A DNA stretch of 64,000 bases from a virus. Its lineage: Duplodnaviria > Heunggongvirae > Uroviricota > Caudoviricetes. Positions 8,077 through 62,997 of this stretch are shown here, piece after piece; position 1 is the stretch's first letter, and every line of letters begins with the position of its first letter. A program made the position numbers and the translations under genes. The stretch lies in the IMG/VR virus record IMGVR_UViG_2861079508_000001. One strand, given 5' to 3'. The notes under the pieces were generated by a model. That model saw only the letters and a list, made by a program, of their open reading frames with translations, did not search any database and was not told the DNA's origin.

Positions 8077-8436
8077 TTAACCTTTCTTCATCAACTCTCG
8101 TTTGATTTCATCGGTACGCATCGTGACATCGGCAGCGGTGATCGCCTCATTCAATTTCACGATGTCCTCGATTTCCTGCGGTGACTTCTCTGCCAGATGG
8201 AAAATGGCTGCTCGAATCACGTCAGAACGAGTGAACTTCTCGAAGCGAGGGATGAACTTCATCATCTCCAGCAGTTCGAAGTATTCGTCCTCCAGTGACA
8301 TTGTGCGGCTTTTAATTTTCTCTTTGCCACGAGTCGGGCGTCCCTGTGGTCTGACTGGTTGGCGCAAAGGAGTTGTGTTCTTAGCCGGTGCATCAGGCTC
8401 TTTGCGCTTTGCTAGGTCACCCATTTTCATGGACAT
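8077..8436 (-). CDS. small partition partner protein (ParG/RHH-like), putative
   Basis: 119-aa protein with basic N-terminal tail and a C-terminal segment (FTRSDVIRAAIFHL) compatible with ribbon-helix-helix; directly downstream of ParA with start/stop overlap at 8436. Confidence 0.4.
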   Translation of the reverse strand: MSMKMGDLAKRKEPDAPAKNTTPLRQPVRPQGRPTRGKEKIKSRTMSLEDEYFELLEMMKFIPRFEKFTRSDVIRAAIFHLAEKSPQEIEDIVKLNEAITAADVTMRTDEIKRELMKKG

Positions 8437-9104: not shown

Positions 9105-9138
9105 TGGAGAGTTCCCTTTGCGTATATAATTATCGTCT

Positions 9139-16300: not shown

Positions 16301-17459
16301 CCGATGACGCTGCCGAACTGGCGGACGATGCGGCTGCCGTTTTTGAGGATTCTGCACGGGTTTCCGACGCTTTCGCGTTCGTTTCGGATGTCTTCGCTGC
16401 GGAAGCAGACCTCGCTGCTGCGCTGGCCTGTTCAGTGGCTTCGCCAGCCTTCGTTGTGGCTGTTGAAGCAGACGATGCGGCACTTTCTGCCGATTTTCCG
16501 GCGGCTGTGGCACTGGCTGAGGCCTGCCCGGCACTTGTTGACGCGGCACTGGCAGACGACGCAGCCGCTGTTTTTGAGCCTGCTGCAGCCGAGGCGCTCT
16601 GTCCCGCTGCCGTTTCAGAAGACTTGGCGTTCGTCTCGGACGTTTTTGCCGCCTTCGCGGAATTTCCTGCCGCCGTTGCCGAGGAAGCTGCGCTACTGGC
16701 GCTCGAGGATGCGTTCGTTTCTGATGATTTCGCTGCCTCTTTTGAGGCCGCCGCATCCCGGGCTGAGGTGGCAGCTTCTGACGCTTTCGTGGTCGCGGTG
16801 GATGCAGAAGTGGCTGCTGATTGTTGTGACGCTGCGGCATTCGTTTCAGATTTTTTCGCAGCAGTTGCACTCGCACTTGCGGCACTTTGTGAGGATGCCG
16901 CAGCGGATGCACTTTGAGACGCTTGAGAGGCTTTTTCTCCAGCGGTATTGGCGCTTTCTGCTGCTGCGGCAGCACTGGCCGCCGCCTCACGAGCTTTGTC
17001 GCCAGCAGCATCAATCGCGTCAGTGTTATTTTTATACCACTCAACGTTTTCGTTGTGCTCGTTGACGATCTGCATTAGCGGCTTAACGGTTACTTCTGAA
17101 CCGTCTTCACGCTCGATTGTCACCTCATCCAGAGCAGTCAACCAACTGCGCATGGACTTGGAATCAGCCGACATACGCGACATTAGTGCTGTAAAGCGCG
17201 CGCTAAACTGTGTTAAGTCGCCTTCATAGGTCGTAATGATTCGGCACGGAACTTCAGACTGAGTTTCGCCGGTATAAGGTTCTGAGAGAACAATGTTCGT
17301 ATCACTGGTTACGCGCTTGATCTCATACAGCTTATTGTCGGGGCCAATGACGATCATCCCCGGCAACACACCATTAGCTGTTACGTTCCAGGCTGTCCCT
17401 GCCCCAACCAGAGTATTGCTGCCCTGTGTAAATGTGATAGTACCTTCCCTGTACCACAT
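13302..17459 (-). CDS. long tail fibre protein with C-terminal intramolecular chaperone (peptidase S74-type) domain
   Basis: 1385 aa; ~280-aa Ala/Ser/Thr-rich low-complexity region; tandem phage-fibre repeats (ASTATKLQTAR.IGGV.FDGSANINLPGVNTTGNQNTT x3-4); C-terminal YGLIAEEVGEIAPQYV-type chaperone motif. Confidence 0.75.
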   Translation of the reverse strand: MWYREGTITFTQGSNTLVGAGTAWNVTANGVLPGMIVIGPDNKLYEIKRVTSDTNIVLSEPYTGETQSEVPCRIITTYEGDLTQFSARFTALMSRMSADSKSMRSWLTALDEVTIEREDGSEVTVKPLMQIVNEHNENVEWYKNNTDAIDAAGDKAREAAASAAAAAESANTAGEKASQASQSASAAASSQSAASASATAAKKSETNAAASQQSAATSASTATTKASEAATSARDAAASKEAAKSSETNASSSASSAASSATAAGNSAKAAKTSETNAKSSETAAGQSASAAAGSKTAAASSASAASTSAGQASASATAAGKSAESAASSASTATTKAGEATEQASAAARSASAAKTSETNAKASETRAESSKTAAASSASSAASSASSASASKDEATRQASAAKGSATTASTKATEAAGSATAASQSKTAAESAATRAEAAADRAEEIAGAVAMEDASLTTKGVVKLSSAVDSTSESLAATPKAVKAANDNANSRVPSNRKVNGKALTADITLTPKDIGTLNSVTMSFSGGAGWFKLATVTMPQASSIVYIALIGGAGYNVGSPHQAGISELVLRAGNGNPKGITGALWKRTAVGLTNFAWINTSGDTYDIYVEIGNYATRVNIHWDCTANATVSIYTSPTYSASKPSSVTDGVVYTMYSTHQKPTPLDIGALPTTGGTVSGPLSVTGGITGTLNGNASTATKLQTARSIGGVGFDGSANINLPGVNTTGNQNTTGNAATATKLQTARTIGGVSFDGTANINLPGVNTTGNQNTTGNAATATKLQTARTINGVSFDGSANISLSPANIGCPASPTGWLTTGSNGGAITTAQLVTLLQNNGAFNTKSWIARCAWAYANSATIPNSETGCGVIPLAGAVIEVFNNGSSSNNYTIRITTATTTSVSGALTNAEFIYVFNGTDYSPGWRRVYNTKNKPTASDVGALPLTGGTLSGGLTSSGEIISKYANGFRIAYGSFGFFIRNDGSNTYFMLTASGDTLGSWNGLRPITINNTSGAVSIGNGLNVTGGVNGSLNGNASTATKLQTARNINGVKFDGSGDININTLVSRGRVTALSGSTQGTAGIQMYEAYNNSYPTMYGNVLHMKGASAAGEGELLIGWSGTSGAHAPVFIRSRRDNTGAAWSAWAQVYTAKDSIPGVNTTGNQNTTGNAATATKLQTARKIAGVAFDGSADITLTAANLNAYTKTEVTNLLSSYASRSSLTGYSGNLDIIAETLVVKSGGSGGFAIWDIGTTTSGANMYIDPNPGINTVWRSTSSRRYKKDIETLQDRYADELLSLRPVWYRSICRGDRKDWGYYGLIAEEVGEIAPQYVHWREPTNNDSPEDISSNGMVAEGVMYERLVVPLIHHIQQLTKRVEELETKLNSPKE
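15050..15420 (-). repeat. tandem ~110-bp coding repeats inside tail fibre gene
   Basis: Encode the repeated ATKLQTAR.IGGV.FDG fibre motif. Confidence 0.6.
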
Positions 17460-17551: not shown

Positions 17552-20500
17552 TTACAGAAGGCCAATTCTTACTCGTAGGACGTTGTTATCGTCATAAACG
17601 TCAATCCGCTGACCATTTATGACCAGTCGCCCATTACCCCCGCTATTACCGTTGATCTCAAGCGTTCCATTTTTGCCGAACCGCCATCCAGATCTACCGC
17701 TAACAAAATTGGTAGATTGCAGATCGCCTACTTTTGCATTGGTGATTGTGCCATCCTTGATATACGCACCATTCATATAGGCGATACTGTTTTCGATAAC
17801 AAATGGCGTGGTGATCTTCCCGTTAACAGAGTTGACCAAACCAAACCTGTCAGCCTGCACCAAAAACTGAGAAAGGCCAGTGGTGTCGATACCAAGCGCA
17901 ATACCAGCAACATACTTCTGCCCTCCGCTCGTTGAAGTTTCCATTTTCAACGTCCACGCGGTTGACACTTTTTTGTTGGTATCAGCAATAGCTGTTGCCT
18001 GCTGTTGAATTGTCGCGGTATTTCCATCCACCTCTGCTTTCAGAGTATCGATTCGCCCACTCAGAGCATTATCTGCCTGCGTTCTCGCTGTCGTTTCAGT
18101 TGTTACCGCCGCGGAAATGTTGGCTGCCGTTTGAGACTCTAAGTTTGTGATTTGAGTCGCCAATGCAGCATCTTGCTCTGTACGCGTTTTCGTTTCGGTT
18201 GCTACAGCCGCTTTAATATCCTCTTTGTATTGAGAGGTCAGCTTGGTGATCTGAGACGACAACGCCGAGTCAGCATCAGTTCGAGCCTGCGTTTCAACTG
18301 CAACGGCCGCACTAATATCTTTCGCTGTCTGTGCTTTTAAACTTGAAACCTCTTTTGTTAAAGCGGTATCACCATCAGCACGAGCCGTTGTTTCTCTGGC
18401 AAGAGATGCCTCGAGATCATTAGCTTTTGCTGTAAGAGACGAAATCTGAGTGGACAATGCACTATCGGCATCAGTCCTTGCCTTTGTCTCTACAGCAACC
18501 GCTGCGGCAATATCAGTTCCGGTTTGTGCTCGCAGGCTGTTAATTTCTCGTGAGAGCGCCTGGTCAGCACTTGCTCTGGCCTCCTGCTCCTGAGTGATGG
18601 CAGCGGATATATCACCGTCAACCTTTGACTGAAGCTGGTTTATTTGTTTGGCTAACGCAGAGTCCCCGCTTGCTCGGGCCTCCTGCTCACTACGTATTGC
18701 AGCAGAAATATCATCATCAACCTTTGCCTGAAGTTGGGTGATCTGGCTTGCCAGAGCCGAATCTTCCGTTGCTCGGGCTTCTTGCTCTTCCTTAATAGCT
18801 GCGACGATATCGTTGCTTACTTTCGACTCAAGCTGAGTGATCTGTGTCGTCAGAGCTTCATCGGCAGATGTGCGAGCCTCCTGCTCTGTACTAATCGCCG
18901 CGCTGATATCTCCTTCAAACTTAGATTGCAGCTGAGTGACACGCTTTGCCAACGCTTCATCGCCATCGGCACGAGCGGTGGACTCTTCCAGAATACTGGC
19001 CTTAATGTCTTCGCCAATTTCTACGCGAATTTCCTCAACCTTCGTGGCCATTGCAGACATATCATCAGCAAAGGTTTTCTGTGTTGTTGCGATCTTCGCG
19101 TTATTGACCATCTGCTTGTGCTGGTCTTCATCTTGACGAAGAGCTAGGTCAATATTTGTTTTGGCTAACGCCTCAATGTTCGTAGTCAGTTCTGCACTGG
19201 CACGATCGACCTCTGCAACCGTCTTTTTCATTTCTTCAACGGCAGCGGAGCTTTCCTCTACCGTTGACTGCAACACTTCCAGTTGTTTAGCGTTTGCAGC
19301 ATCGCCTTCAACACGAGCCTCGCTTTCCTTAGCAATAAGAGCCGCCGCTTCATCTCTTGCAGCCTTTATTGCCTCGACTGTATTAGCGAGAGCTTTATCG
19401 TGTTCAGATACGGTGTTTTCGATTTCAACAATTGCAGCATCAGTAGCATCAATTTTTTCAAACGCTTCATTGACCTTGTCGATCGTTGCCGAAACCTCAC
19501 CTTTAAGCTCGGTTTGTGCGTTCTCCAAAGCATCGCTACGCTCGTTGAATTTTATTTCAAAACCCGCGAGGTTATCGCTGAACTGCTTATCTAATTCAGC
19601 TATATCTTCCTTAACGTCGTTTACCGACCCCTCCAAAGATTCGACGCTCTGGTTGATATGCTCATTTAACTCGTCAACTGCTTCTTGAGAGGCTTTGCTG
19701 TTGATGTCCTCAAGCAGAGCCTGACCAAGCTCGGAAGATGTAATTTTGCCAGCCAGGAACGACAGTACATCGCGAGTTGTCGCCTCTGTACCCAAGTTTG
19801 AGTTCGGAGGGCTTAACATACCTCGCTTGTTCGATGCTCGAACCCAGTAATACCACGTTTCGCTATCCCCAAGACCAGCATGTGTAAAGGTGGTGCTTGC
19901 AGACTCTGCGATCAGTTTCGCCGTATCCAGATTGTTGGTCTGGGATGCGTAAACATTAATGTGATCAAGGTCTACCGAATCTGGATTAACCCAATTCAGT
20001 ATCACATTACGATAGTCTCCAACGGCCGTTAATGACGTTGGTGCATCCGGCGGTGTCATTGTGCCCAGCACCTGATAAACGGTACTGATAATTTCTGTTT
20101 TTTTACCGTTGAATGAAACCGCATACAGTTGGAAGTCGTAGCGTCCATTCTCCGCGACATTAACGATTTCGTATTGTTCTTCGGTTACACGCGCCGATTG
20201 CCAGTTCGATACATTGTTTTCATCAGAACGTCGCCAACTGATCCAATACTCTGGAGATTTCCCTTCCCATGTTGCAGTCAGTTTTACTGACAGGTTGCCC
20301 GGGCTTGAGAGGTAAGTCCCTTCAGTGATTTGCAAATTAGACGGCTTGGAGTAAGTCGGGTCCAATACCGTCGTATTCTGCGGGATAAGCGTTGCACCAT
20401 TGTCGATCGCCTCATATTTAGACGGATTGTTTTCAACAGCGGTGATGTCAAAGCTACCCGACGTTTCCCCCTGAGCGATGTTAACGATGCGAACGCGCAT

Positions 20501-24808: not shown

Positions 24809-27800
24809 TTAGTTACGTTGAGTGTTTGGGTTGAGAGATCCGCCAGGGCGTTTCTCTTGAGCGATAGTCTCAAGCGCGATTGCTTTCATCCGTTGAGCGG
24901 CATTGTTCCATATGCTTTCTGTATCGCCGGATTCAGTTGTGCTACCGTCACTATGGACGTTGATCTCAATTGATACCGGAGAAAGAACATTTCCTCCTCC
25001 ACTCATACCATCGGTACTGAGCGTTACAGGGATTGTTCGACCATCAGGCAATGGAACATACGCCTCATTCATATCGCCTTCCCCAAACAACGCCAATTGA
25101 GGTGAGTTGGCGATACCGCCTTTCTGGTATGCCCGGAGCGGGATCACGCCGTCTTTTCCGAATATGCCACCATTTGCAAACTTCGGAATTGCAGGAATAC
25201 CATTCGTGCCATCGGCAGCAGAACTGGTCAGATTGTTGAACCCGGAAGTTGAGCCAGAAGAACCGGACATCAATCCATCGAATCCACCACCAGCCCATAC
25301 TGAAACCAAACCAGATGCAACTGTCGCGCCGAAATTCAACCACTTATTACCAGAGCCGGAAGCATTAGCTCCAAGCATTGCAAACGCGGCAGACAGAGCG
25401 CCGGTAACAGAGCTGAGGTTCTGCATCGAGAAGATGGAGTCCTTCACTGCTTTTGTCTCAGCATCTTTGGCTTCGGTGCTATCAAATAGCCCCGATACCC
25501 AGCTACCAATCGCATTTGTTGCTGTGCCAATTGCGCTGGTGGTCTGCTGTGTTGTTTGCCCCAATCCAGTTACCGAACTGGACGTCTCCTTCGTGGCTTC
25601 TCCTACCGACTTGTCGCCATTAACAGTGTTGCCCATTCGTACACCTTGATTGGCAACGGCAGAAGCAACTCCAGTGAGCAAATTGCCACTCTGTGAACTA
25701 CCAGCTGCGGTGGTTCCCATCCCCAACATGTTCATTAGAGGCAGCGTGATTTGCGACTTCACGACCATATTGGTGATATCTTTCAAAATGGACTGAGATA
25801 GGCTGGAGAAGCTCATCTTCCCGTTAATAACGAAATCAGTCAGGACATCAGTTAAGCCACTAAACAAATCAGTCCAGGTGCTTTCGATCTGCTCTGCCAA
25901 GTTTTCGTATTCCAGTGCCAACTTCTGCGTCGCAGTCCCCGTCTCTTTAATAAGCGCGGTATTGCCAGCAGCAATCAGTTGATTGATTTTCTTTGTATAA
26001 AGCGCCACAACTTTAGGATCAGACGCCTTATCACGAAGTTCTATCAACGCTTTGAGATTGCGGTTGTAGGTGTCTTCGAAATCGGCAACTTTCTCTTCGC
26101 GAGACGGCGTATAGCCAGCACTAATAATGGAATCCGCCTCCGGTGCCCAAGTGGAGATCATCTGCTCAACATTGCGGCGATTAAACATCTCACGATATTC
26201 AGGTGTCGCATTTTTGAGGTCTTCAAGACGTTTTTTCGCCTTGTCGATCATCTCTTGAGTGATGAACTCGTTAGGAACCGCATTAGCCAAATCTGTCAGC
26301 GATTTCGTTGTATCGCGAAGAGACTGATCAAACGATACCGTAGCCTTAGAGCTTTCACCCATTTGCCCCATAAGCTGATCGGCTTTGTCCAGAGCCTTCT
26401 GGTATCCGGCTGCCAGTTTCTGTTGCGCTGCCTGTTCCTTCTTGGCCGCACGCTGCGAGGCGTTAGCTGATCGTTGGGCTGCTTTCTCGGCAGCTGCTGC
26501 ATCCTGTTCACGAGCTTTAGTTAGTGCAGCAATGGCTGCGGCACGCTCTTCATCGCTCATTTTCTCCAGAGAGCTGGCGCTGGATGCTTTCTGCAAATTA
26601 AGCTGCGTCTTGAGTTGTTTAGGCCCAATAATCGGCTTACCTTCGAAGTCCATCATCGGAGTGCCGTCAGGCAAAGTACGCTGATAAGTCGCAGAATTCA
26701 TCTGGTTTCGCATATATTGCGCCAACGCCTTCTGAGCAGCTTTATCAGTTGTACCTAACCCAAGAACAGTCCCCTGGTTTGACATTACGCCCTTACCAGT
26801 TTTGGCCGCGTTATCTCTCTCGAACTCTGCCTGAGTAAGTTCCTGAGCAACGGCTTCCAAATGCTCCTGATAACCACGAATACTGCCTTGCAGTTTCTGG
26901 ATTTGCTCGGTATTGCCATCCTTTTTGGCTTTTTCAAGCTGATCATTAAGAGTCGCGATTTGCTTCTCGGTCGCATTCTTACGAGAAGAAAGTGAATCAA
27001 CCAGTTTTTGCGCAGGCTCCAGATAGCTTTTGTTTACCGTTTCACGTAACGGTGCCAATAGCTTGTTCTTTTCGTCATCTGAAAGTGAACCGTCATCATT
27101 GATTTTCTGGATCTTATCCAGAGCCTCCTGCCGGGCTTTCACGAATGTTGCCGCGAAAATCTGGTTTTCCGCTCGAATTTTCTCAATCTGAGATTCGGCA
27201 GCCTCTTTAGCCAAACGCTTTGCTACAGCGCCGTCACCAAGAGCTATCGTGCCGGTTATCTTTTGATACTCTTCCTGATTTTTTTTCAGGCGTGCTTCGA
27301 TGTCAGCCTTCGACTCTTTGTGAGTAATAACACCGGCAGAGTTAGATACGTAATTAACACCCTCACCAGTTTTTAATGCTCGTTGATCAGCAAGAATCTG
27401 CTTTTCGAGCTTTTCTGCGCGGTCGGCCATTTGTGCACGTTTGGCCGCCGTCATCGCCTCTGGTATTTTCCTAATCTCGTCAACGACCTTTGAAGTTTCG
27501 CTGCGGAGCATGGTCATGTACGTGATTAGGCCAGCAACAGCTACAGTGGCAACTGTAAATGCTGCCCCTATAGGGTTTGCTGCAATGAACGCCGTTAATC
27601 CAGCAAAAGCGCCTTTAAGCCCCGTAATCGCCCCACGGATGGCGAAAATAAGAGAGGGGATCGGAGCCAGCCCCATACGTGCCGCACGATTGAATCGGGT
27701 TACTGCTGTAGCGCCGAGGTTAAATGGAGTCTGTATGGCGGTCGCCATCGTGGCAAAGGTGCTAACCATCTGGCTGCCTGCGCCAACTACCCCCATGATC

Positions 27801-28547
27801 CCTGCTCGCATCAGTTTGAACGCAACCATCGCGGCCACGACCTTACCGAGATTAATTACCAGCTCTTGGTTCTTTGCTAACCATTGAGCAAGCTGACGCA
27901 ACCCATCAATTGCCGTCGTTAACCCCGAGCCTAAAGAATTGGCAAACGAAATCCCTTCGGCGCTATTCATGATTGAAGCCAGTTCTTTCATCCCCTTCGA
28001 TAGAGAATCCAGATATCCGGCCTGACCAACCCGATCAGCAAATAACGTGAATGACGTCTGAAGTTGCGCCAGCGCACCTGTGTAGGTTTGCATCATGTCT
28101 TTCGCTGCGTTCTCATTCTCCGCACGCAGACCAACAAACATCAGAGACAACGCCTGTTTTGCCTCAACCGTACCGCTGGCAACGGCTTTAGTCAGTTCCC
28201 CCATAGTGATGCCTGCGGCGTCTGCCATTGCCTGCATCGCGTTAGGAACGGCTTCACCTAATTGCTGACGTAGCTCTTCCATTGACACAACGCCCTTACC
28301 GGACATCTGCTGAACGGCCACAGCCGCACGTTTCAACAGCTCACTATCACCACCAAAACGAGCAACGGAGTCCACCAGCGCCTTCAGAGAACCATCGGTT
28401 GGATCTAAGCCAGCAGAACGAAACTTCACGAAGGAATCTGTTAACGCCTGCATCGCGAACGGCGCATTTTGCGCCATGTCTACGATGTACTTCATATCAT
28501 CAGCGGCAGCCTGGCCAGGGTTGGACTTCTCCTTATTCAACCCTCGA
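24809..28547 (-). pseudogene. tape measure protein, 3' portion (gene interrupted by IS insertion)
   Basis: Long mostly helical ORF (1243 aa from an internal TTG) downstream of chaperone genes; reading frame is continuous with the 29858..30714 fragment once the IS and one TSD copy are removed. Confidence 0.7.
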
Positions 28548-28601
28548 TGAACCGCCCCGGGAATCCTGGAGACTAAACTCCCTGAGAAAGAGGTAAACAG
28601 G

Positions 28602-28928
28602 ATGACTAAAAATACTCGTTTTTCCCCCGAAGTCCGTCAGAGGGCGATTCGTATGGTTCTGGAAAGTCAGGGCGAATATGACTCACAGTGGGCGGCAATT
28701 TGTTCCATTGCCCCAAAGATTGGCTGTACACCGGAGACTCTGCGTGTCTGGGTACGCCAGCATGAGCGGGATACCGGAGGCGGTGATGGCGGGCTCACCA
28801 CCGCTGAACGTCAGCGTCTGAAAGAGCTGGAACGTGAAAATCGTGAACTGCGCCGCAGTAACGATATCCTTCGCCAGGCTTCCGCTTATTTTGCGAAGGC
28901 GGAGTTCGACCGCCTCTGGAAAAAATGA
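28602..28928 (+). CDS. IS3-family transposase OrfA (HTH/leucine-zipper part)
   Basis: 108 aa [23 protein letters not shown]...; I recognise this as the IS629/IS3-group OrfA; ends at an A-run slippery site. Confidence 0.8.
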
Positions 28929-29815
28929 TGCCACTGCTGGATAAGCTGCGTGAGCAGTACGGGGTCGGACCGCTATGCAGCGAACTGCATATTGCCCCGT
29001 CAACGTATTACCACTGTCAGCAACAGCGACATCATCCGGATAAACGCAGTGCCCGTGCGCAGCGCGATGACTGGCTGAAGAAAGAGATACAGCGCGTATA
29101 CGATGAAAATCATCAGGTGTACGGTGTGCGTAAAGTCTGGCGTCAGTTGTTACGGGAAGGTATCAGAGTGGCCAGATGCACTGTGGCACGTCTCATGGCG
29201 GTTATGGGACTTGCCGGTGTTCTCCGGGGTAAAAAGGTCCGTACGACCATCAGCCGGAAAGCCGTTGCCGCAGGCGACCGCGTAAACCGTCAGTTCGTGG
29301 CAGAACGACCTGACCAGCTGTGGGTGGCTGATTTTACTTACGTCAGCACATGGCGGGGCTTCGTCTATGTGGCGTTCATCATTGATGTGTTTGCCGGATA
29401 CATCGTGGGGTGGCGGGTCTCATCGTCTATGGAAACGACATTCGTGCTGGATGCTCTGGAGCAGGCGTTATGGGCCCGTCAACCGTCCGGCACAGTCCAT
29501 CACAGTGATAAAGGTTCTCAGTATGTATCGCTGGCCTACACACAGCGGCTTAAGGAAGCCGGATTACTGGCATCAACAGGAAGTACTGGTGACTCGTATG
29601 ACAACGCGATGGCGGAGAGCATCAATGGCCTTTACAAAGCGGAGGTAATACACCGTAAGAGCTGGAAAAACCGGACAGAAGTGGAGCTGGCCACACTCAC
29701 GTGGGTGGACTGGTATAACAATCGACGATTGCTGGAAAGGCTGGGCCATATCCCACCGGCAGAAGCAGAAAAAGCTTATTATGCTTCCATCGGAAACGAT
29801 GATCTGGCAGCCTGA
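28925..29815 (+). CDS. IS3-family transposase OrfB (DDE catalytic part)
   Basis: 296 aa overlapping orfA in the -1 frame at AAAAAATGA; integrase-type DDE core (e.g. [16 protein letters not shown]). Confidence 0.8.
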
Positions 29816-29857
29816 GTTCACAGATAAAACACTCTCCAGGAAACCCGGGGCGGTTCA

Positions 29858-30714
29858 CGAAGCATCACCCGCATACGTTCCATTTCGGCCGCAGCTTCAA
29901 CAATAGGCTTCTGCCACCCAAACATGATGTCAGTAACCGTTCTGGCTGCATCTCCGATCTCGCCAAGCAGGAAAATGTTGCCACGAAGGCCAGAGAACAT
30001 ACCTCCTTCGTTACTTTTACCGCTATGGCCAGAAGCGCCGCTACGCCGCCCGCTACCACCATCGCCACTTCCAGATGTACGAACGCGTACCGGCTTGCTA
30101 ATCAGTTGCTGACGTCCGATAACTTCGTCCATCTGCTCACGAACCTTTTTCAGTCCCTCGGCAGCCTGACTCGTTGTGACACCCCAATTACTGAGTCGCT
30201 TCGTCGTGGTATTAAGGCGCGTATTCATGCCACTCACGGACGCAGAGGCTTCTTTGACCTCCGTACCAAAGCGGCTTGCGCTTTTGCTTGCATAGGTCGC
30301 CCAATCAGAGAAATCATTTAGCTCTGATTGCACTTTACGTAATGACGCGGTGAGTTTATCTACTGAAGAAGTTGTCGTATCGACGCGCTCAATCAGGGCT
30401 TTAAGACCAGAATTGAGGCTGGTGATGTTGCCACGCATTTTACGCGTAGCATCTGAAGCAAGCTCAAAACCGGCAGCTACATCCTGTAGTTTATCTGCTG
30501 TAGAATCGAGCTTGCTTTCCAGAACGCCAATGATACGGGCGACCGAACCCAAAGAGCGTTCAAAGGTTTGGATTTTTTGAGCAGGCTTTGTTACCTGCTC
30601 ACCAAATCGAGTAAGCAGTTTCCCCGCACGATCGATTGACGCTGTAAACTGTTTGTCTTCCAGCGACAGGATAAACTCTACGTTTTGTGACATTCCCTTG
30701 TCATCCTCTGCCAA
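29858..30714 (-). pseudogene. tape measure protein, 5' portion (truncated by IS; last 13 codons of ORF are IS-derived)
   Basis: ORF 29818..30714 reads from TMP start into the IS right end; codon 285 ends in the CGA target duplication. Confidence 0.7.
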
Positions 30715-50307: not shown

Positions 50308-50322
50308 AACAAATTGTTTTCT
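50308..50322. promoter_or_regulatory. motif 1 operator-like palindrome
   Basis: Minus-sense layout GATAAT - 8 nt - AGAAAACAATTTGTT - RBS - ATG of gene 49804..50286. Confidence 0.55.
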
Positions 50323-51067: not shown

Positions 51068-51083
51068 AGAAAACAAATTGTTA
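51068..51083. promoter_or_regulatory. motif 1 variant (AGAAAACAAATTGTTA)
   Basis: Upstream of gene 50637..51011. Confidence 0.45.
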
Positions 51084-51095
51084 TCTGGCTTAATA

Positions 51096-51988: not shown

Positions 51989-52115
51989 CAATGGCGTAAA
52001 TAATACCAATAAGAAAACGGCTACAAAGCATAATGATCAGGTGCATGAGCGATATGCAGGTTCTTCCCTGCGGCTACAGATTAAGTTAAGCCAGCAATGC
52101 TGGCTTTGGTTGGGA

Positions 52116-52445
52116 TTACGCGAATACCTCAAGAAACTCCTGAACGTCCCAATGCTGGACGAGGTGAAGATAGACCTTAGAAATCACGTCATTTTCGCTA
52201 TCGCATGTGAAGTAGTACTTCTGGCTGCGGTTGTATGTGTCCACACAAAATTCGCTCATATCCATAAAGTCAGCATCATCACCCAGGTCGCTAATCATCA
52301 AAGCAGGTGCATCATCACGAGTCATCAGCTCCAGCACCCATCTTGAATTAATCAGAGTGGAAGACCAACCTTCCAGCTCATAAAACTGGTCAAACTCTTT
52401 TTGAGTCAATTTCTTAATTTGGTTGATGTCGATATTTGCAAACAT
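52116..52445 (-). CDS. hypothetical small acidic protein (candidate DNA-mimic/anti-restriction-like)
   Basis: Start at ATG preceded by AAGGA; ~110 aa with many Asp/Glu; GATAAT + motif-1 operator upstream. Confidence 0.45.
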   Translation of the reverse strand: MFANIDINQIKKLTQKEFDQFYELEGWSSTLINSRWVLELMTRDDAPALMISDLGDDADFMDMSEFCVDTYNRSQKYYFTCDSENDVISKVYLHLVQHWDVQEFLEVFA

Positions 52446-52458
52446 AAAGCAATCCTTA

Positions 52459-52474
52459 AACAAGATGTTTTCTT
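52459..52474. promoter_or_regulatory. motif 1 variant (AGAAAACATCTTGTTT)
   Basis: Between GATAAT and RBS AAGGA of gene 52116..52445. Confidence 0.5.
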
Positions 52475-52789
52475 AATGGTGTTATTATCGCAATAACGCA
52501 CAGGCGAAAAAGGATTTTATTCCGGTGAATGTGGTTTTGGCAGTGAGTTTTCAGGTTCAGTACAGAGTACACTTTTTACATTATTCTGATTTAGTGGCCG
52601 AAGATGGCTGGTGGGCAGAATAATCATCTCCCCGAAAACCTACTGAAATCGATTGTGACCCGTTGGCTGTCTGGCACAATTACGCTGTAACTGGGCATTC
52701 AGAGGGAATCCAGCGGTAAGTAGGTTCGCCTTCACGTGAGCGCCTCTCTTCTTCCCGCACATTACAGGTGGGTAGCCGCAACTCTCCCT

Positions 52790-52950
52790 CTCGCTATGCC
52801 GGTACGCCGCCGTTCCTGAACCGGCATCGAGCCTTTTCCCGAAATCCACACAGGCAACTCGACCGTTTCCCTGAAAACCTCCAGCCGTTCCCCGAAGGCA
52901 ACCCAGCCGTTTCTGTAGCGGGATGCAACCTTTTCCCTGTATGGACCGAA
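52790..52950 (+). repeat. iteron-like direct repeat array B (same unit family)
   Basis: ~6 tandem ~22-bp units (CCGTTCCTGAACC, CCTTTTCCCGAAATCC, CCGTTTCCCTGAAAACC, CCGTTCCCCGAAGGC, CCGTTTCTGTAGC, CCTTTTCCCTGTATGG). Confidence 0.5.
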
Positions 52951-53049
52951 GGCTGACCGTAGGGGTGTTACGGGGGATAAAATCAGGAGTTGAATAAATA
53001 CGAAAAAGGAGGCGACACCCCTCCTTCCCTCCCCACTTATACATACCTG

Positions 53050-53900
53050 GCTTCTTCGCTATACATGTTGTGTTTTATCTGTCTCAACCTCTCTATAGGC
53101 GTTAATGCTCACTCCTTCCAGAATGTTCTATACGGCAACTATTTCTGTTGGTGAATTGGGTGTGTTGTTCTCTCTGTCGGTGTATGTGGTTTCGTTCGTT
53201 TTGCGGTGGTTCTTCTATGGGGTGTTCTCGTCGTTTTGGTGATTGTTCTTCTCCGTGTATGGAGTAATGGCAGGTGGGCGATTCCTTTCGTTGTTGTGTT
53301 TGAGTTGTTTGTCTGGAGTGTGTGAAAGGCTTTTGCAGTTATTCGTGTATTGGGTAATGGCATTTCCCGTGATTGTTGTGTTTCGTGTCTTTTGGGATTG
53401 AGAGAAACCTTGCGGTTACAGGCTTCGTTGGGGTTTCAGTGATTCTGGTGTTCTTCGCTGTTTGGGGAATGGCGTGTCGTGGGTATCGCGCGTATGAATG
53501 TTTTCGGATTGCCTGTGAAAGTTAGGTTGGTTGTCCGGTAGCCTGGGGAGAAGAGGTGGGTCTTTTCGGTAGCCTGCCATAAAGAGGTTGGTTGTTTTTG
53601 GAAATGGCATTTGTGTTATTTAGTTGTTTTGTTATGCCTGAAAATAAGTTGTTTATATGGTTGTGTAACGCAACGGGAGCGATTTTGAGCGTGTGTTTTT
53701 GTTGGTAGTGTGTTGGGTCGTCTGTGGTGAAAATTGGACGCTGTGGCGCTGTCTGCTGCGTAGAGTTACGGGTATAAGCAGTGATGTGTGAAAACGTCAA
53801 TTTTTTAGACCAAATCGGGTGAAAGCGTTGATGTTTCGTTGATCTGTTATTCAGTTGTTTTCTTGATTGTATAAACAACTATAACTTATTGATATTTAAG
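53050..53900 (+). repeat. GT-skewed non-coding region with periodic GGnTAATGGCA-type repeats
   Basis: Plus strand almost exclusively G/T-rich; recurring TGGAGTAATGGCAGG, TTGGGTAATGGCATTT, GGGGAATGGCGTG, TGGAAATGGCATTTG at ~85-130-bp spacing; also CGGTAGCCTGGGGAGAAGAGGTGGGT duplicated and related to 50400-50430. Confidence 0.5.
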
Positions 53901-54009
53901 GATGTGATTGCGGGTATGGAAGAAGAGTAGTGGCGATCAACGGATTCTTATAGAAAAGAATCAAATTGTGACCGCCATTATCAACTGATTGATTTGTTTA
54001 CTTGTGTAG

Positions 54010-54408
54010 TCAGTTCTCGAAATGAATAGGGTCAACGTAATGCCGCTCACCGCTTTTACCATTACACAGCACTGTAACTTTCGCCTTTTCACTCCAGGCT
54101 GAGTATAGAAAGTTCCCATCAGGTTGAACATGGTAACGAGAGAAGTAAACATCGCCGACTGAGGCGTCGAACATGTTCCTATCTTTTTCACTTTGGGCAA
54201 GCGAGATGGATATCACCGAATTCCCATTTGGGGAAACGATTTTAAATTTATTCCCTATATCCATAACAATATTGTAACCAGGTAATTGCTTGTGTGTTTC
54301 CGGATCTATTTTCATGCATCGTGGGTACACGATAGTGTTAGGCTCTTCAACTGGCGTGGCATTAGCAGAAAGCACAAAAAATATTAGTGCCAATGGTGCA
54401 TATTTCAT
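54010..54408 (-). CDS. secreted protein of unknown function
   Basis: Signal peptide MKYAPLALIFFVLSANA; 132 aa. Confidence 0.5.
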   Translation of the reverse strand: MKYAPLALIFFVLSANATPVEEPNTIVYPRCMKIDPETHKQLPGYNIVMDIGNKFKIVSPNGNSVISISLAQSEKDRNMFDASVGDVYFSRYHVQPDGNFLYSAWSEKAKVTVLCNGKSGERHYVDPIHFEN

Positions 54409-54702
54409 TTATCCCTCACAATTTCCAATTTTCCAGACCATCGTCTATTTCAGCGTCAGGGTGGAATTGTACCGCATCAAATCCTACATCGAGCACCTTT
54501 CGAATGTTCTTGATGGTTTGCTATGTGACACCGTAATCACGCAGCTTTTCTTCCCTCCCCTGACTCCCCCATACTCCGTTTCTGTACCCAATTGAGTCCG
54601 AGATTGTATGGTGCTCGAAACAGATATTTGGTAGACACTCAGAGTCATGCTGTGTAACGAGGGTAGGGCTACTAACTGTCGTCTTATACAATTTGGTGAG
54701 TT

Positions 54703-54951
54703 TCAGCATTTTACCACCCCGTTCGGAAACAACTCATTCGCCGTAGTTGATATAACCTCCCAATTAACGCCGACATCAGCGTTATGGCATTGTCTGATTT
54801 TTTGCATCACCTGTACGCATTGTTCATCAGTGAGATCTGTCCTTACTTCAGCAATATCTTCTTTGTGCCACATAACCATGAGTAAGGGTTCGTCTTCTGG
54901 ATAGTTTTTCAGTTTCTCGATGATTTCTTTTGCTGTTCCAAACATCTTCAT
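54703..54951 (-). CDS. hypothetical small protein
   Basis: 82 aa; RBS GGAG; two motif-1 copies bracketing a GATAAT upstream, abutting the metG terminator. Confidence 0.5.
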   Translation of the reverse strand: MKMFGTAKEIIEKLKNYPEDEPLLMVMWHKEDIAEVRTDLTDEQCVQVMQKIRQCHNADVGVNWEVISTTANELFPNGVVKC

Positions 54952-54956
54952 CTCCT

Positions 54957-55021
54957 AAACAATTTGTTTTCTTATATGACTTATTATCTCAATCAACAAA
55001 AGGTAGAAAACAAATTGTTTT
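54957..55021. promoter_or_regulatory. promoter region with two motif 1 copies bracketing GATAAT
   Basis: AAACAATTTGTTTTCT (54957-54972) and AGAAAACAAATTGTTTT (55005-55021) upstream of gene 54703..54951; ~35 bp from metG terminator. Confidence 0.55.
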
Positions 55022-55058
55022 AGAGTTTGTTAAAGTCAGAAGGGGTTGTGTCTATATG

Positions 55059-55085
55059 AAAATGCCCGGCGTGTTGCCGGGCATT
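55059..55085 (-). terminator. metG rho-independent terminator
   Basis: Minus-sense AATGCCCGGC-AACAC-GCCGGGCATTTT directly after metG stop. Confidence 0.7.
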
Positions 55086-55104
55086 GCGAAGAGAGGTTGT
55101 TTAA

Positions 55105-57138
55105 TTACTTAACCTGGTGGCCAGGTTTAGCACCAGCATCCGGGCTTAACAGGAAGATATCTTTCCCGCCGGGGCCAGCAGCCATCACCATGCCTTCAGA
55201 GATACCGAAGCGCATTTTACGTGGTGCCAGGTTAGCCACCATAATGGTGTGACGACCAATCAGTGCCTGTGGATCTGGATAAGCGGAACGGATGCCTGAG
55301 AAGACATTACGCTTTTCACCACCGAGATCCAGCGTCAGGCGAAGCAGTTTGTCAGAACCTTCTACAAACTCTGCGTTTTCAATCAGCGCCACGCGCAGGT
55401 CAACTTTGGCGAAGTCGTCAAAGGTGATAGTTTCCTGAATCGGGTCGTCAGCCAGTGGGCCAGTTACCGGTGCGGCTGTGGCTTTCACTTCTTCTTTGGA
55501 TGCTTCCACCAGTGCTTCAACCTGCTTCATATCGATGCGGTTATACAGTGCCTTGAACGGATTCACTTTATGGCCCAGCAGCGGTTGCTGGATACCATCC
55601 CAGGTCAGTTCTGTATTCAGGAATGCTTCTGCACGTTCAGTCAGTTTCGGCAGTACCGGTTTCAGGTACGTCATCAGCACGCGGAACAGGTTAATGCCCA
55701 TAGAGCAAATCGCCTGCAGATCGGCATCGCGTCCTTCCTGCTTTGCCACCACCCACGGAGCCTGTTCATCAACATAGCGGTTAGCCAGGTCAGCCAGTGC
55801 CATGATTTCACGGATAGCTTTGCCAAATTCGCGGCTTTCCCATGCTTCGCCAATCACTTCAGCGGCATCAGTAAAGGTTTTGTACAGTTGCGGGTCAGCC
55901 AGTTCGCTTGCCAGCACGCCGTCAAAACGCTTGTTGATAAAGCCTGCATTACGGGAGGCCAGGTTAACCACTTTGTTAACGATATCGGCATTCACACGCT
56001 GAACGAAATCTTCCAGGTTGAGATCGATATCATCAATGCGCGAAGAGAGTTTCGCAGTGTAGTAGTAACGCAGGCTGTCGGCGTCAAAATGATTCAGCCA
56101 GGTGCTGGCTTTAATAAAGGTGCCGCGAGACTTGGACATCTTCGCGCCGTTCACCGTCACATAGCCGTGAACAAACAGGTTGGTCGGCTTGCGGAAGTTG
56201 CTGCCTTCCAGCATGGCAGGCCAGAACAGGCTGTGGAAGTAAACGATATCTTTGCCGATGAAGTGGTACAGCTCGGCGGTGGAGTCTTTCTTCCAGTATT
56301 CGTCGAAGCTGGTAGTGTCGCCGCGTTTGTCGCACAGATTCTTGAAGGAACCCATGTAGCCAATCGGCGCGTCCAGCCAGACGTAGAAGTATTTGCCCGG
56401 TGCGTTCGGAATTTCAAAACCGAAGTAAGGTGCGTCACGGGAGATATCCCACTGTTGCAGGCCAGATTCAAACCACTCCTGCATTTTGTTTGCCACCTGC
56501 TCCTGCAACGCACCGCTGCGGGTCCATGCCTGCAACATTTCGCTGAAAGAAGGCAGATCAAAGAAGAAGTGTTCGGAATCACGCATTACCGGTGTAGCGC
56601 CAGAAACCACTGATTTCGGCTCGATCAGTTCCGTCGGGCTGTATGTCGCGCCGCAGACTTCACAGTTATCGCCGTATTGATCCGGCGCTTTACATTTCGG
56701 GCATGTGCCTTTTACAAAACGGTCCGGCAGGAACATGCCTTTTTCCGGGTCGTACAGCTGAGAGATGGTGCGGTTTTTAATAAAACCGTTCTCTTTCAGG
56801 CGAGTATAGATAAGCTCGGACAACTGACGGTTCTCTTCGCTGTGCGTCGAGTGATAGTTGTCATAGCTGATGTTAAAGCCTGCGAAATCAGTCTGATGTT
56901 CCTGACTCATTTCGCCAATCATCTGTTCCGGTGTGATACCAAGCTGCTGTGCTTTCAGCATGATTGGCGTACCGTGGGCATCGTCGGCACAGATGAAATT
57001 AACCTCGTGGCCGCGCATTCGCTGGTAACGAACCCAGACATCAGCCTGGATGTGCTCCAGCATATGGCCGAGGTGGATTGAGCCGTTAGCGTACGGCAGC
57101 GCGCACGTCACCAGAATTTTCTTCGCGACTTGGGTCAT
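55105..57138 (-). CDS. metG: methionine--tRNA ligase
   Basis: 677-aa product from the ATG at 57136-57138 (track ORF is 43 codons longer from an upstream alternative start); HLGH and KMSKS class-I motifs; sequence I recognise as Escherichia-type MetG. Confidence 0.95.
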
Positions 57139-57295
57139 AGTAGGCATTACTTCTTTGTAGTGAAAAGGGGCTTGATAGTAACAAAATGGCCTTATGTCTG
57201 CCATGTGATAACAGCATTTCTCATAAATGATTAAATGTCGTAGCTGGAGTACACTACAAGGCGACAATTGCGCAAATTAAAATAAAGGAGACGGG

Positions 57296-58396
57296 ATGAG
57301 CGAGTCCAAATCGCCGGATGCCCTGAGAGCAATGGTAGCCGGTACGCTGGCTAATTTTCAGCACCCAACCCTGAAACACAACCTGACTACGCTTAAAGCG
57401 TTACACCATGTTGCGTTGATGGATGACACACTGCATGTCGAACTAATCATGCCTTTCGTGTGGAATAAGCCTTTTGAAGACCTGAAAGAGCAATGTAGTG
57501 GTGATCTGCTCCGTATCACTGGCGCAAAGGCTATTGACTGGAAGCTGTCGTACAACATTGCCACGCTTAAGCGCGTCAAAAACCAACCAGGCATTAATGG
57601 CGTTAAGAACATTATCGCCGTCAGCTCAGGCAAGGGCGGCGTGGGTAAATCCTCCACGGCGGTAAACCTGGCACTGGCGTTGGCTGCTGAAGGTGCGAAA
57701 GTTGGTATTTTGGATGCCGATATCTATGGTCCATCAATTCCAACCATGCTGGGCGCGGAAAACCAACGTCCAACCTCACCGGACGGTACTCACATGGCAC
57801 CTATCATGTCTCATGGCCTGGCAACCAACTCTATTGGTTATCTGGTCACCGACGACAATGCAATGGTGTGGCGTGGACCGATGGCCAGCAAGGCGCTGAT
57901 GCAGATGTTGCAGGAAACACTGTGGCCTGATCTGGACTATCTCGTTCTCGATATGCCACCGGGCACTGGTGATATTCAATTGACGCTGGCGCAGAACATT
58001 CCTGTAACTGGTGCGGTTGTGGTAACTACGCCGCAAGACATCGCGCTGATCGATGCGAAGAAAGGCATTGTGATGTTCGAAAAAGTCGAAGTGCCGGTAC
58101 TGGGTATCGTTGAAAACATGAGTGTGCATATTTGCAGTAACTGCGGTCATCACGAGCCAATTTTTGGCACCGGTGGCGCACAGAAACTGGCCGAGAAATA
58201 CAACACGCAGTTGTTAGGCCAAATGCCACTTCATATCTCTCTTCGTGAAGATCTGGATAACGGAACACCAACCGTTATTAGTCGTCCAGATAGTGAATTT
58301 ACGGCTATTTATCGTGACCTCGCAGATCGCGTTGCTGCCCAAATGTATTGGCAAGGTGAAGTAATACCTGGCGAAATCGCATTCCGCGCAGTGTGA
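57296..58396 (+). CDS. apbC: iron-sulfur cluster carrier ATPase ApbC/Mrp
   Basis: P-loop [10 protein letters not shown], CxxC (CSNCGH); divergent from metG as in the Escherichia chromosome. Confidence 0.95.
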
Positions 58397-58583
58397 TAAA
58401 AAGGTGGTGCTTTTGCCGTTACGCACCACCCCGTCAGTAGCTGAACAGGAGGGACAGCTGATAGAAACAGAAGCCACTGGAGCACCTCAAAAACACCATC
58501 ATACACTAAATCAGTAAGTTGGCAGCATCACCGAGCGCCAGCGGCGAACATATGAGCTTCGGAAATACTAGACATTCTTAACT

Positions 58584-58642
58584 CCGTTGTTTTCTAGTTG
58601 TGGTTATTTTCACAAATAAGAAAAGATAGAAAACAATTTATT
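58584..58642. promoter_or_regulatory. motif 1 half-sites (TTGTTTTCT ... AGAAAACAA) separated by ~32 bp
   Basis: Downstream of apbC; no obvious gene served; possibly degenerate. Confidence 0.3.
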
Positions 58643-58694
58643 TAAGGCCACAACTTATGGCCTTTATTTATTCATGCCGAAGGATTTGTAGCGT

Positions 58695-59075
58695 CTAATT
58701 GCCGGATAAAATGGGGTGAGGTGCTTGCCAGTAGGCTCCACCGTTCCATGTGAACCCCATGCGAATAAGAGTGTTTATTGCGGCTTTGGTAGACTCCGAT
58801 TCGACACTGGCTTTACGAAACTCTTGAACCTCTTTCGCCAACTTGTATGTAATTGTGCAGGGGACGATTGCAGCCCAGCCTTTCTCATGACTGTTAATGA
58901 CCATCTGGATGTGACCATCCAGAATAGGTTGATTAGGCATGTTATTGAAAATGTCTGCCTGTTTTTGAATGTGAAGAAAAAGCCTTGCCAGCGCCATTTG
59001 CTCACTACGAGACAAGGGATTATCAAGAGGGCTTTTTGCAAAAGCTGCTATACGCTGTGCATCAATGCCAAACAT
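58695..59075 (-). CDS. hypothetical protein
   Basis: 126 aa; start overlaps stop of upstream 234-aa gene. Confidence 0.45.
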   Translation of the reverse strand: MFGIDAQRIAAFAKSPLDNPLSRSEQMALARLFLHIQKQADIFNNMPNQPILDGHIQMVINSHEKGWAAIVPCTITYKLAKEVQEFRKASVESESTKAAINTLIRMGFTWNGGAYWQAPHPILSGN

Positions 59076-59779
59076 CAGCGCACCTCACCATCTTTATGGC
59101 TGGAGTTAACTTCCGTCATTAAATGTCTGACGTAATCGACAAGAGAGCCGCCTGGTGGAATCTGGCATTCCTCAACTAACTGGAAGTAGATATCCGCTGC
59201 ATTACGTGTATTGCTACCCGCGCATATTCTTTCTTCCCGAAGTGCATGAAGCTCGTTGATCAAACGGTCACACTCTCCGTTACGCTGATCCACAACGGCC
59301 TCAAGCTCTGCGACGCGTTCACCTGGCGTCTTACCTTCTTTGCGTTGGATGGTAACGACGAAATCGCCAATTGCAGGGACGTTGTAATCCAGCTCAAGGT
59401 AGTTTTTGGCACCGCTGCGGACGAACTCACCCGCGAACATGGTGGCGAACATCGCAGAGGCCACTTCTCCGTTGAAAAGTGACTCCAGATCTAACGGAGT
59501 CCCGGCAGCAAGAGCCTCTTTTGCTGTATCCATTGCATCCATGAACCGATCAAACTCACTAGCGCGCTTTTCCAGGTCTTTCCATTGCTCGCTCCAACGT
59601 TTGGCAACGAAGTCTATGAATGTTTTCGCGGATTCATCAAAATTCCCCTCAAACTTAACGATGCCTTTATCAATAATGATCTGGCCTACCGCATCCTCTG
59701 CATAACCTTTCAATGTAAACTTGAAAGGAAAATCGGAATGGCCTGTGACGTTAAAATGCTCTAACTGGAGGTTGCTCAT
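59075..59779 (-). CDS. hypothetical protein
   Basis: 234 aa; motif-2 element upstream. Confidence 0.45.
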   Translation of the reverse strand: MSNLQLEHFNVTGHSDFPFKFTLKGYAEDAVGQIIIDKGIVKFEGNFDESAKTFIDFVAKRWSEQWKDLEKRASEFDRFMDAMDTAKEALAAGTPLDLESLFNGEVASAMFATMFAGEFVRSGAKNYLELDYNVPAIGDFVVTIQRKEGKTPGERVAELEAVVDQRNGECDRLINELHALREERICAGSNTRNAADIYFQLVEECQIPPGGSLVDYVRHLMTEVNSSHKDGEVR

Positions 59780-61538: not shown

Positions 61539-61554
61539 AAATAATTTGTTTTCT
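61539..61554. promoter_or_regulatory. motif 1 operator-like palindrome
   Basis: Upstream of methyltransferase gene, followed by GGTGTAATTATCG as at 50323-50340. Confidence 0.55.
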
Positions 61555-62980: not shown

Positions 62981-62997
62981 AAAACAAGTTGTTTTCT
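62981..62997. promoter_or_regulatory. motif 1 operator-like palindrome (AAAACAAGTTGTTTTCT)
   Basis: Upstream of TerB-like gene. Confidence 0.55.

Follow-up and report, generated by a model that had tools for sequence, protein, structure and literature searches.

Auxiliary copies of metG, which encodes methionine--tRNA ligase (MetRS), have been described on SSU5-like phage-plasmids, where the metG-bearing element of Shigella sonnei is named pWPMR2, and phage-plasmids of this kind are common in epidemic S. sonnei lineages (bioRxiv 10.1101/2025.09.12.675607). As related in the passage of PMC12452169 that cites Tam et al. (2024; medRxiv 10.1101/2024.10.27.24316207), the phage-plasmid metG promotes antimicrobial persistence in S. 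sonnei, its expression giving rise to a subpopulation predisposed to survive and then to acquire third-generation cephalosporin resistance. Here we analyze a 64,000-nucleotide stretch of viral DNA (IMG/VR record IMGVR_UViG_2861079508_000001, hereafter the window), in which metG lies divergently beside apbC (mrp) on pSLy3, an element that names one of the four groups in the SSU5 supergroup of phage-plasmids (PMC7969092) and serves as a reference in a 2025 survey (bioRxiv 10.1101/2025.09.12.675607). Neither the phenomenon nor the element, itself a reference phage-plasmid, is new; what we add is the anatomy of the junctions with their IS1 scar, the discordant ancestry of metG versus apbC and the spacer, with signs of an old capture of mixed ancestry, a gene conversion tract, the finding that apbC and the promoter region are as strictly conserved as metG, and a der-bearing sublineage.

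The pWPMR2-type elements belong to the same SSU5-like family as pSLy3, and the gene pair of S. sonnei plasmids in this family is 98-99% identical in DNA and adjoins the same left flank. They differ in source and allele: pSLy3 comes from swine Escherichia coli and bears the common metG allele, whereas the S. sonnei plasmid pAUSMDU00010534_01 bears an allele with G134C, A410T and D565E and a chromosome-derived tract. The same two divergent genes make up the chromosomal mrp-metG pair of E. coli K-12 (b2113-b2114), with which the sequence just upstream of metG is conserved, although the pair examined here lies on a phage-plasmid, without the chromosomal neighbours and with another terminator. With Salmonella phage SSU5 and pHCM2, the type members of the supergroup, the element shares the backbone genes (DUF1380-family, Eaa-like, DUF4942, ParB-like and helicase genes) and an operator at small-gene promoters, but in SSU5 the slot between the DUF1380-family and Eaa-like genes holds ydfZ, LprI-family, HD-phosphohydrolase and other genes, and neither metG nor apbC. 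In placing a second synthetase gene on a mobile element the locus also resembles mupA/ileS2 and the synthetases of large phages; it differs in that the phage-plasmid MetRS is nearly identical to the host enzyme, and so no divergent resistant variant, and arrives with a neighbouring non-translation gene.

A host-derived cassette on the phage-plasmid pSLy3

We hold with good confidence that the two genes form a cargo cassette, captured from a host long ago, that lies in the variable accessory region of the SSU5-supergroup phage-plasmid pSLy3 and is comparable to a moron, that is, a prophage-carried gene expressed during lysogeny. Both genes are intact. metG (55105-57138, minus strand) is full length at 677 amino acids, matches NCBIfam model NF001100 over residues 4-677 of 677 with 1019.8 bits (cut-off 587), and retains the HLGH (residues 22-25) and KMSKS (333-337) motifs, the zinc knuckle (146-162, with CPKC at 146 and CEVC at 159) and the C-terminal tRNA-binding/dimerisation domain (TIGR00399 match, residues 543-677). 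Eight of the 677 residues distinguish its product from K-12 MetRS (98.8% identical; 94.3% at the DNA level), and none is private, as every variable residue recurs in the chromosomally encoded MetRS of one Escherichia species or another. From these eight differences and a ratio of nonsynonymous to synonymous divergence (dN/dS) of 0.02, the phage-plasmid enzyme is predicted to be active in aminoacylation. MetG is at least 99% identical in 191 plasmids, and pSLy3 and S. sonnei p38 share its protein accession. On the opposite strand, apbC (57296-58396, plus strand; 366 amino acids) encodes an iron-sulfur cluster carrier P-loop NTPase that matches NF008669 with 759.3 bits (cut-off 348) and carries the deviant Walker A motif GKGGVGKS at residue 112 and the CXXC cluster-binding motif, CSNC, at 280. 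The accession for this protein, WP_000004356.1, is annotated in pSLy3, in an Escherichia marmotae plasmid and in two S. sonnei plasmids.

Positions 54000-59500 of the window are 100% identical to pSLy3 (NZ_CP015915.1), a circular plasmid of 114,472 bp from E. coli 210205630, isolated from swine cecum. Across 40000-64000 the window is 96-98% identical to the Escherichia phages CMS-2020a, PhiR41_1 and Cyrano, and Salmonella phage SSU5 aligns to 40% of this length at ~84% identity. Portal, large terminase, tape measure, tail fibre, DnaB-like helicase and primase genes are present in the window, and putative ParB-type partition genes are assigned through the 96-98% identity to annotated Cyrano, such that phage structural and packaging genes stand together with plasmid maintenance genes on a circular extrachromosomal replicon, the combination characteristic of the pSLy3 group. 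An earlier interpretation made from the letters of the window (the sequence-only reading) had listed captured host cargo and a plasmid-like replicon among several possibilities, and both suggestions agree with these matches and with the distribution of the cassette.

In PLSDB, 207 plasmids match the cassette, 201 of them with at least 80% coverage and the same left flank; 190 are from Escherichia (coli, albertii, fergusonii and marmotae) and six from Shigella. Most of the listed records measure 107-115 kb, and 202 plasmids are typed as non-mobilizable. The phages Cyrano, CMS-2020a and PhiR41_1 carry the same cassette, the recorded host of PhiR41_1 being E. coli K-12 MG1655. By comparison, the backbone gene DUF4942 is found in 556 plasmids, of which 204 are from Escherichia and six from Shigella, and the others from Klebsiella, Enterobacter, Salmonella, Citrobacter and Cronobacter; the listed cassette matches in Salmonella and Klebsiella are few, fall in records of 0.5-5.4 Mb and have identities at the chromosomal level. 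The cassette is apparently nearly universal in the Escherichia/Shigella branch of the family and absent from the other branches. Among 5,426 complete E. coli genomes, the pair is present on 5,632 records in 5,422 genomes, which leaves ~210 copies in addition to the chromosomal one, as expected of an auxiliary metG that sits on an SSU5-like phage-plasmid beside the resident gene. By this surplus, roughly 4% of complete E. coli genomes hold phage-plasmids of the pSLy3-type family.

These records also bear on whether the pair could be an ordinary chromosomal metG-mrp locus, flanked by two related islands or an integrated prophage, or fused to phage DNA in an assembly chimera. Gene order and orientation are those of K-12, and neither junction carries an integrase, a tRNA gene, an attachment site or a direct repeat (the whole window is free of tRNA genes), as the sequence-only reading had seen; both features would suit a chromosomal locus. 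Set against them are the complete identity to a circular 114-kb plasmid, the recurrence of the same cassette and left flank in ~200 independent plasmid assemblies and three named phages, and an identity to chromosomes of only ~90%. The comparison of synteny with Escherichia chromosomes, which had been proposed as a check, showed in addition that the K-12 neighbours yehE and yehF are absent and that chromosomal homology runs only from stop codon to stop codon. Given the plasmid distribution and the ~210 extra E. coli copies, we dismiss the two-island and chimera readings, both of which had been put forward, and leave a chromosomal locus next to no probability.

The cassette is embedded in DNA that carries the element's own repeated motif. 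This motif, GAAAACAAWTTRTT with the palindromic core AAACAAWTTGTTT, has 14 matches at no more than one mismatch in the window (0.26 expected) and recurs at the transcription-start position of numerous small genes read leftward, downstream of a GATAAT-like -10 box and ahead of the ribosome-binding site; in addition to the copies that flank the cassette, AAACAAWTTGTTT sites include 6211-6224, 50308-50321, 51069-51085, 61540-61553 and 62983-62996. Exact copies number four to six per locus in pSLy3, Cyrano and SSU5, and none is present in 81 chromosomal Enterobacteriaceae loci (~1 Mb), which speaks against the motif being host-wide, one of the observations that the sequence-only reading had named as refuting its account of the locus. 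AAACAAWTTGTTT is probably the operator of a family-wide repressor. Of the two shared motifs originally reported on both sides of the pair, the element-specific palindrome is confirmed, while a second repeated motif could not be identified in the flanks. Operator copies lie on both sides of the pair and none lies inside 55105-58402, so that the cassette is without the element's control sites, and its expression is probably independent of phage gene control.

Boundaries of the cassette and the IS1 scar

To the left of metG, the backbone is represented by a small DUF1380-family gene (54703-54951, minus strand), with one operator copy at the start site of its promoter (54958-54976, minus strand), in a region homologous to that upstream of SSU5_104, and a second copy further upstream (55001-55022), with which the backbone gives way to the cassette; the motif matches themselves span 54958-54971 and 55006-55022. 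SSU5 is homologous only as far as ~55013. The 91-bp stretch between backbone and metG stop codon (55014-55104, minus strand) contains an intrinsic terminator, whose hairpin (55061-55085; -19.1 kcal/mol, z = -5.0) lies 20 nucleotides past the metG stop and leads into a U-tract, UUUUCAUAU. This stretch is conserved in Cyrano at 93%, but a short-word BLAST search with 54950-55125 found no match to it in 81 chromosomal loci or in SSU5, and the terminator differs from the sequence downstream of K-12 chromosomal metG. A terminator is present, as the sequence-only reading had supposed; its description as native to the host gene does not hold, since it matches no sampled chromosome.

On the right, chromosomal homology ends at the apbC stop codon, and the sequence that follows is mostly a remnant of the insertion sequence IS1 (58403-58532, minus strand), comprising the left inverted repeat and approximately the first 130 nucleotides, 96-100% identical to IS1 copies and annotated in pSLy3 as 'IS1 family transposase, incomplete'. 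Its outer end lies at 58532, whereas the inner end is truncated and abuts the terminator region of apbC. The sequence-only reading had placed a switch to small-gene DNA ~190 bp beyond apbC; most of these ~190 bp are the IS1 remnant, which had been missed. The resumed backbone (58533-58642, minus strand; 88% identical to the start and upstream region of SSU5_099) consists of 14 codons from the 5' end of an SSU5_099-like gene, a stub left by the IS1 insertion and seen by inspection of the sequence (58533-58575, minus strand), and the promoter of this gene, at which motif matches mark operator copies at 58587-58596 and 58629-58642 (minus strand).

Cyrano and most relatives have a different arrangement at this side, with a hairpin, GGCGGTGC-AAT-GCACCGCC, and an S24 peptidase gene no more than 37 bp past apbC; where pSLy3 has the IS1 scar, Cyrano has ~3.9 kb extending from the S24 peptidase gene to an Eae-like gene. 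The junction between apbC and IS1 in pSLy3 (58397-58410), which reads GGTGGTGC, falls at an 8-bp microhomology, GGCGGTGC, that is common to the interior of IS1 and to the hairpin after Cyrano apbC (18643-18670 of Cyrano locus L002), and points to a microhomology-mediated deletion. In the simplest reading of the right junction, IS1 would first have inserted into the SSU5_099-like gene, after which a deletion would have removed the remaining IS1 together with the backbone up to apbC. Because the whole 5.5-kb region around the scar is common to only three of the records listed, the scar is a late event and no trace of the original capture; the IS1 fragment marks a later deletion specific to the pSLy3 sublineage.

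The right junction also decides how much weight can be given to a recent capture from a current E. coli host, either by an IS1 composite transposon or by IS1-driven co-integration. Such a capture would account for an IS1 end that directly adjoins apbC, and other plasmids of the family have IS1 copies in the same region. However, most relatives lack the fragment and have the S24 peptidase gene 37 bp after apbC, the three records that share the 5.5-kb scar region are the only ones listed to do so, the metG side is without an insertion sequence, and the most plausible source of the fragment is an IS1 insertion into the SSU5_099-like gene, of which a later deletion at the 8-bp microhomology left this scar. 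The cassette is also only ~90% identical to the listed E. coli chromosomes, with synonymous divergence (dS) from K-12 of 0.28 in metG and 1.57 in apbC. We therefore judge a recent IS1-mediated capture to be highly unlikely. A composite transposon bounded by insertion sequences was considered separately and rejected, since all that borders the cassette is one IS1 fragment of 130 bp, next to apbC.

Ancestry and selection of metG, apbC and the spacer

The listed E. coli chromosomes match the cassette at 89.7-90.4% identity and only from the metG stop to the apbC stop, and because the match is at only ~90%, the capture is neither recent nor from E. coli. A donor search, in which ApbC was compared against one genome per species (185,579 species) and 80 loci were kept, returned no apbC above 84% and no metG above 94.3% DNA identity among those loci. 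The two genes give discordant signals. For metG, dS between window and K-12 (0.28) falls within the range between K-12 and other Escherichia species (0.25-0.34) and below that between K-12 and Citrobacter (0.73-0.74), and the description of this gene as Escherichia-type stands. For apbC it does not: dS to K-12 is 1.57, versus 0.37-0.64 among Escherichia species and ~1.24 between K-12 and Citrobacter, and the gene is saturated at synonymous sites relative to Escherichia. The distance of apbC from Escherichia, and that of the spacer, is comparable to the distance between Escherichia and Citrobacter. DNA identity of apbC is 82.4% to K-12 and 82-84% to every Escherichia and Citrobacter representative, its G+C content at third codon positions is 0.517 versus 0.60-0.63 in Escherichia, and its product lacks three N-terminal residues found in K-12.

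The spacer between the divergent genes (57139-57295; 157 bp, without an operator copy), which contains the putative promoters of both, is longer than its K-12 counterpart (131 bp) and mostly unalignable to Escherichia. It is 64-68% identical to Escherichia and 75-76% identical to Citrobacter and Salmonella diarizonae, while the ~47 nucleotides adjoining metG resemble Escherichia and share with K-12 a TGnTACTAT element, similar to an extended -10. The divergent promoter had been called native; this is borne out for these ~47 nucleotides and not for the remaining spacer, which is closer to Citrobacter and S. diarizonae. A consensus scan of 54600-58800 for promoters and terminators gave no more matches than shuffled sequence and detected neither the spacer promoters nor the metG hairpin, so the positions of promoters within the spacer are putative.

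Accelerated evolution of apbC on the element was examined as a source of this discordance and rejected: synonymous divergence between phage-plasmid copies is lower in apbC than in metG in 15 of 15 pairwise comparisons, with metG often approximately twice as diverse (proportions of synonymous differences between pSLy3 and Cyrano of 0.085 for apbC and 0.103 for metG). We infer instead that the donor of the pair was a lineage other than the Escherichia species sampled and that metG was later overwritten by Escherichia sequence, metG appearing the more recombination-prone because it is less diverged than apbC. An allele in S. sonnei provides clear evidence, within the aligned sequences, that such exchange can occur. 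In the metG of pAUSMDU00010534_01 (1501-3534 of locus L087), a tract of ~600 nucleotides at gene positions ~240-840 is nearly that of K-12, with 0-3 mismatches per 120 nucleotides to K-12 and 3-9 to pSLy3; the encoded protein has the E. coli-type residues S112, S151, S275 and V276 in addition to its private G134C, A410T and D565E, and the tract is best taken as direct evidence of gene conversion between chromosomal and phage-plasmid metG. A stretch of pSLy3 metG itself, 55855-56150, is 97-99% identical to K-12 and was considered as a second recombination tract, but was rejected as the most conserved stretch of the gene in all genera. In one record, CP170191.1 (L006), labelled Enterobacter hormaechei strain B56, the identities of metG, apbC and spacer to the window exactly equal those of K-12, and because of this agreement the record is possibly an E. 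coli genome under another name.

Both genes are under strong purifying selection on the element, as judged from sequence divergence. Relative to K-12, nonsynonymous divergence (dN) is 0.006 for metG and 0.027 for apbC, and relative to Citrobacter it is 0.018-0.021 and 0.027-0.030, respectively; dN/dS against chromosomal homologues is ~0.02 for both (0.02 for metG, 0.017 for apbC). Phage-plasmid copies of apbC differ from one another by 8-49 synonymous and 0-2 nonsynonymous changes, and those of metG by 28-122 synonymous and 0-5 nonsynonymous changes, with the exception of the S. sonnei pAUSMDU00010534_01 allele (8-12 nonsynonymous differences). The spacer has 0-1 mismatches per 157 bp among five of six phage-plasmid copies, whereas the flanking genes differ at 3-23% of synonymous sites; the sixth copy, from E. 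marmotae, has a 1-nucleotide length difference and was not properly realigned. The control region thus seems to be under stronger constraint than coding synonymous sites, and given the few nonsynonymous changes and the near-invariant spacer, both proteins and their control region are kept by selection on the element.

Taken together with the junctions, an old capture could have proceeded as follows. An ancestor of the Escherichia/Shigella branch would have acquired the mrp(apbC)-metG pair of a chromosome, with ends that fall almost precisely on the two stop codons, and the cassette would have been inherited with the element ever since, with apbC and spacer keeping the signal of a donor outside sampled Escherichia while metG was overwritten piecemeal by gene conversion with resident chromosomes. 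Weighing against this history, a single unsampled donor lineage with an unusual apbC is possible; because the search for an apbC donor gave none, the non-Escherichia donor and the conversion of pSLy3 metG are both deductions from divergence. More speculatively, and with a probability that we would place clearly below even, the cassette may derive from an ancient capture, its source being an enterobacterial lineage that has yet to be sampled, and may today serve the essential host metG as a partner in recombination. If so, apbC and the spacer would preserve donor sequence while metG is repeatedly rewritten by resident chromosomes, and by virtue of this rewriting the phage-plasmid could shuttle metG alleles, those conferring tolerance among them, into and out of Escherichia and Shigella strains.

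Function of the cassette and other features of the element

As cargo expressed in the lysogen, the cassette would act while the element is kept as a low-copy circular plasmid; retaining its own divergent promoter region and terminator, it would raise the cell's supply of MetRS and ApbC, both essentially wild type, from a replicon present in several copies. Related elements conform to this picture in that CYRAN_99, the apbC homologue of Cyrano, is transcribed 9-fold over prophage background in E. coli LF82 lysogens, with a Cyrano copy number of 5.5 per cell (PMC9928086). MetRS activity sets persistence, with reduced MetRS capacity raising it (PMC11004401), and sets lag time via homocysteine thiolactone and SdiA (PMC13463772). 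Candidate routes from the cassette to persister formation may include variable dosage from the multicopy replicon, mixed dimers with mutated alleles and altered homocysteine editing. A mobile second copy of an essential translation gene would constitute a route to antibiotic treatment failure that is invisible to resistance-gene screens.

Several points weigh against this account of the cargo in pSLy3. An extra wild-type copy of MetRS fits poorly with persistence that rises on reduced MetRS capacity (PMC11004401). The pSLy3 metG is the common allele without private residues, and the tape-measure gene of pSLy3 is interrupted by an insertion sequence, such that a benefit in lytic growth would not apply to this copy. 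The persistence effect in S. sonnei is reported to be stronger for mutated alleles.

In three phage-plasmids (NZ_CP146383.1, NZ_CP072690.1 and NZ_CP148383.1) the gene next after apbC is a host-type der, for the ribosome-biogenesis GTPase EngA, located in the E. marmotae plasmid NZ_CP146383.1 at locus coordinates 7651-9123 (L085); the phage-plasmid der is ~91% identical to E. coli chromosomal der and is a second captured translation-related housekeeping gene at the same hot spot. If the recombination-partner proposal holds, the near-unchanged ApbC, the invariant spacer and the added der would indicate selection on a small 'housekeeping booster' module and not on metG by itself.

The der-bearing sublineage also hints at a translation theme that would suit a benefit to the phage itself, in which extra MetRS sustains translation initiation and elongation during lytic growth and persistence is a side effect. 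A similar role in lytic growth has been proposed for the aminoacyl-tRNA synthetases of large phages, and MetRS genes are found in the unrelated Pseudomonas phage Y5, Acinetobacter phage MD-2021a and Microcystis phage MaAM05 and in jumbo phages. Relatives of pSLy3 such as Cyrano also yield virions, and related elements are induced by ciprofloxacin (PMC9928086). Yet the cassette is without the element's operator and retains host-like control, the apbC homologue is expressed in lysogeny, an enzyme 98.8% identical to that of the host could contribute only dosage, the cassette is intact in pSLy3 despite the disrupted tape-measure gene, and retention of apbC is left unexplained. We regard a primary benefit to lytic growth as improbable, though worth more consideration than a second proposal, that the additional metG is a drug- or toxin-insensitive replacement target, as in mupA/ileS2, directed against a natural MetRS inhibitor or a toxin acting on Met-tRNA.

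Resistance is known to arise from auxiliary aminoacyl-tRNA synthetase genes that mobile elements bring in, and Cyrano encodes a KacT-type acetyltransferase toxin, both of which would favor such a replacement target. Resistant replacement synthetases are normally highly divergent, however, and the pSLy3 MetRS has no residue that is missing from chromosomal Escherichia MetRS, while the MupA/MupB models score 33 bits against a cut-off of 1900. With 8 differences in 677 residues and none of them private, MetG was rejected as a MupA-like replacement synthetase, and we give an insensitive target very little chance of being the explanation. Both the phage-benefit and the resistant-target proposals are weaker than host-derived cargo expressed in the lysogen.

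Further observations concern the element outside the cassette. An insertion sequence of the IS3 family, 1310 bp long (28548-29857), interrupts the tape-measure gene, with 25-nucleotide inverted repeats at 28548-28572 and 29833-29857 and two overlapping open reading frames. An ALIL frameshift pseudoknot (RF01497) at 28883-28999 is the sole Rfam match in the window, and the scan found none within the cassette or close to it. Positions 24809-28540 encode the C-terminal part of the tape-measure protein, where the match to PHROG 1292 begins only at profile position 285, and the N-terminal part is putatively the open reading frame at 29818-30714; because the IS3-family element splits the gene, pSLy3 is probably unable to build tails.

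A region of ~1.5 kb to the left of the cassette (52450-54010) has no annotated gene in pSLy3, and S. sonnei p38 has none at the equivalent site. The plus strand of this region shows a strong G+T bias at 53100-53800 (GC skew +0.31, AT skew -0.34), where it contains degenerate repeats with GG(T/A)AATGGCA, while Tandem Repeats Finder found nothing across the G+T-rich non-coding stretch 52000-54500. The region might serve as a replication or other origin, function in packaging or specify a non-coding RNA. A further compositional anomaly is found at 16001-17000, inside the gene for a 1385-amino acid tail fibre (13302-17459), where GC content rises to 0.595 with an AT skew of -0.34 in an element otherwise of ~46-48% GC.

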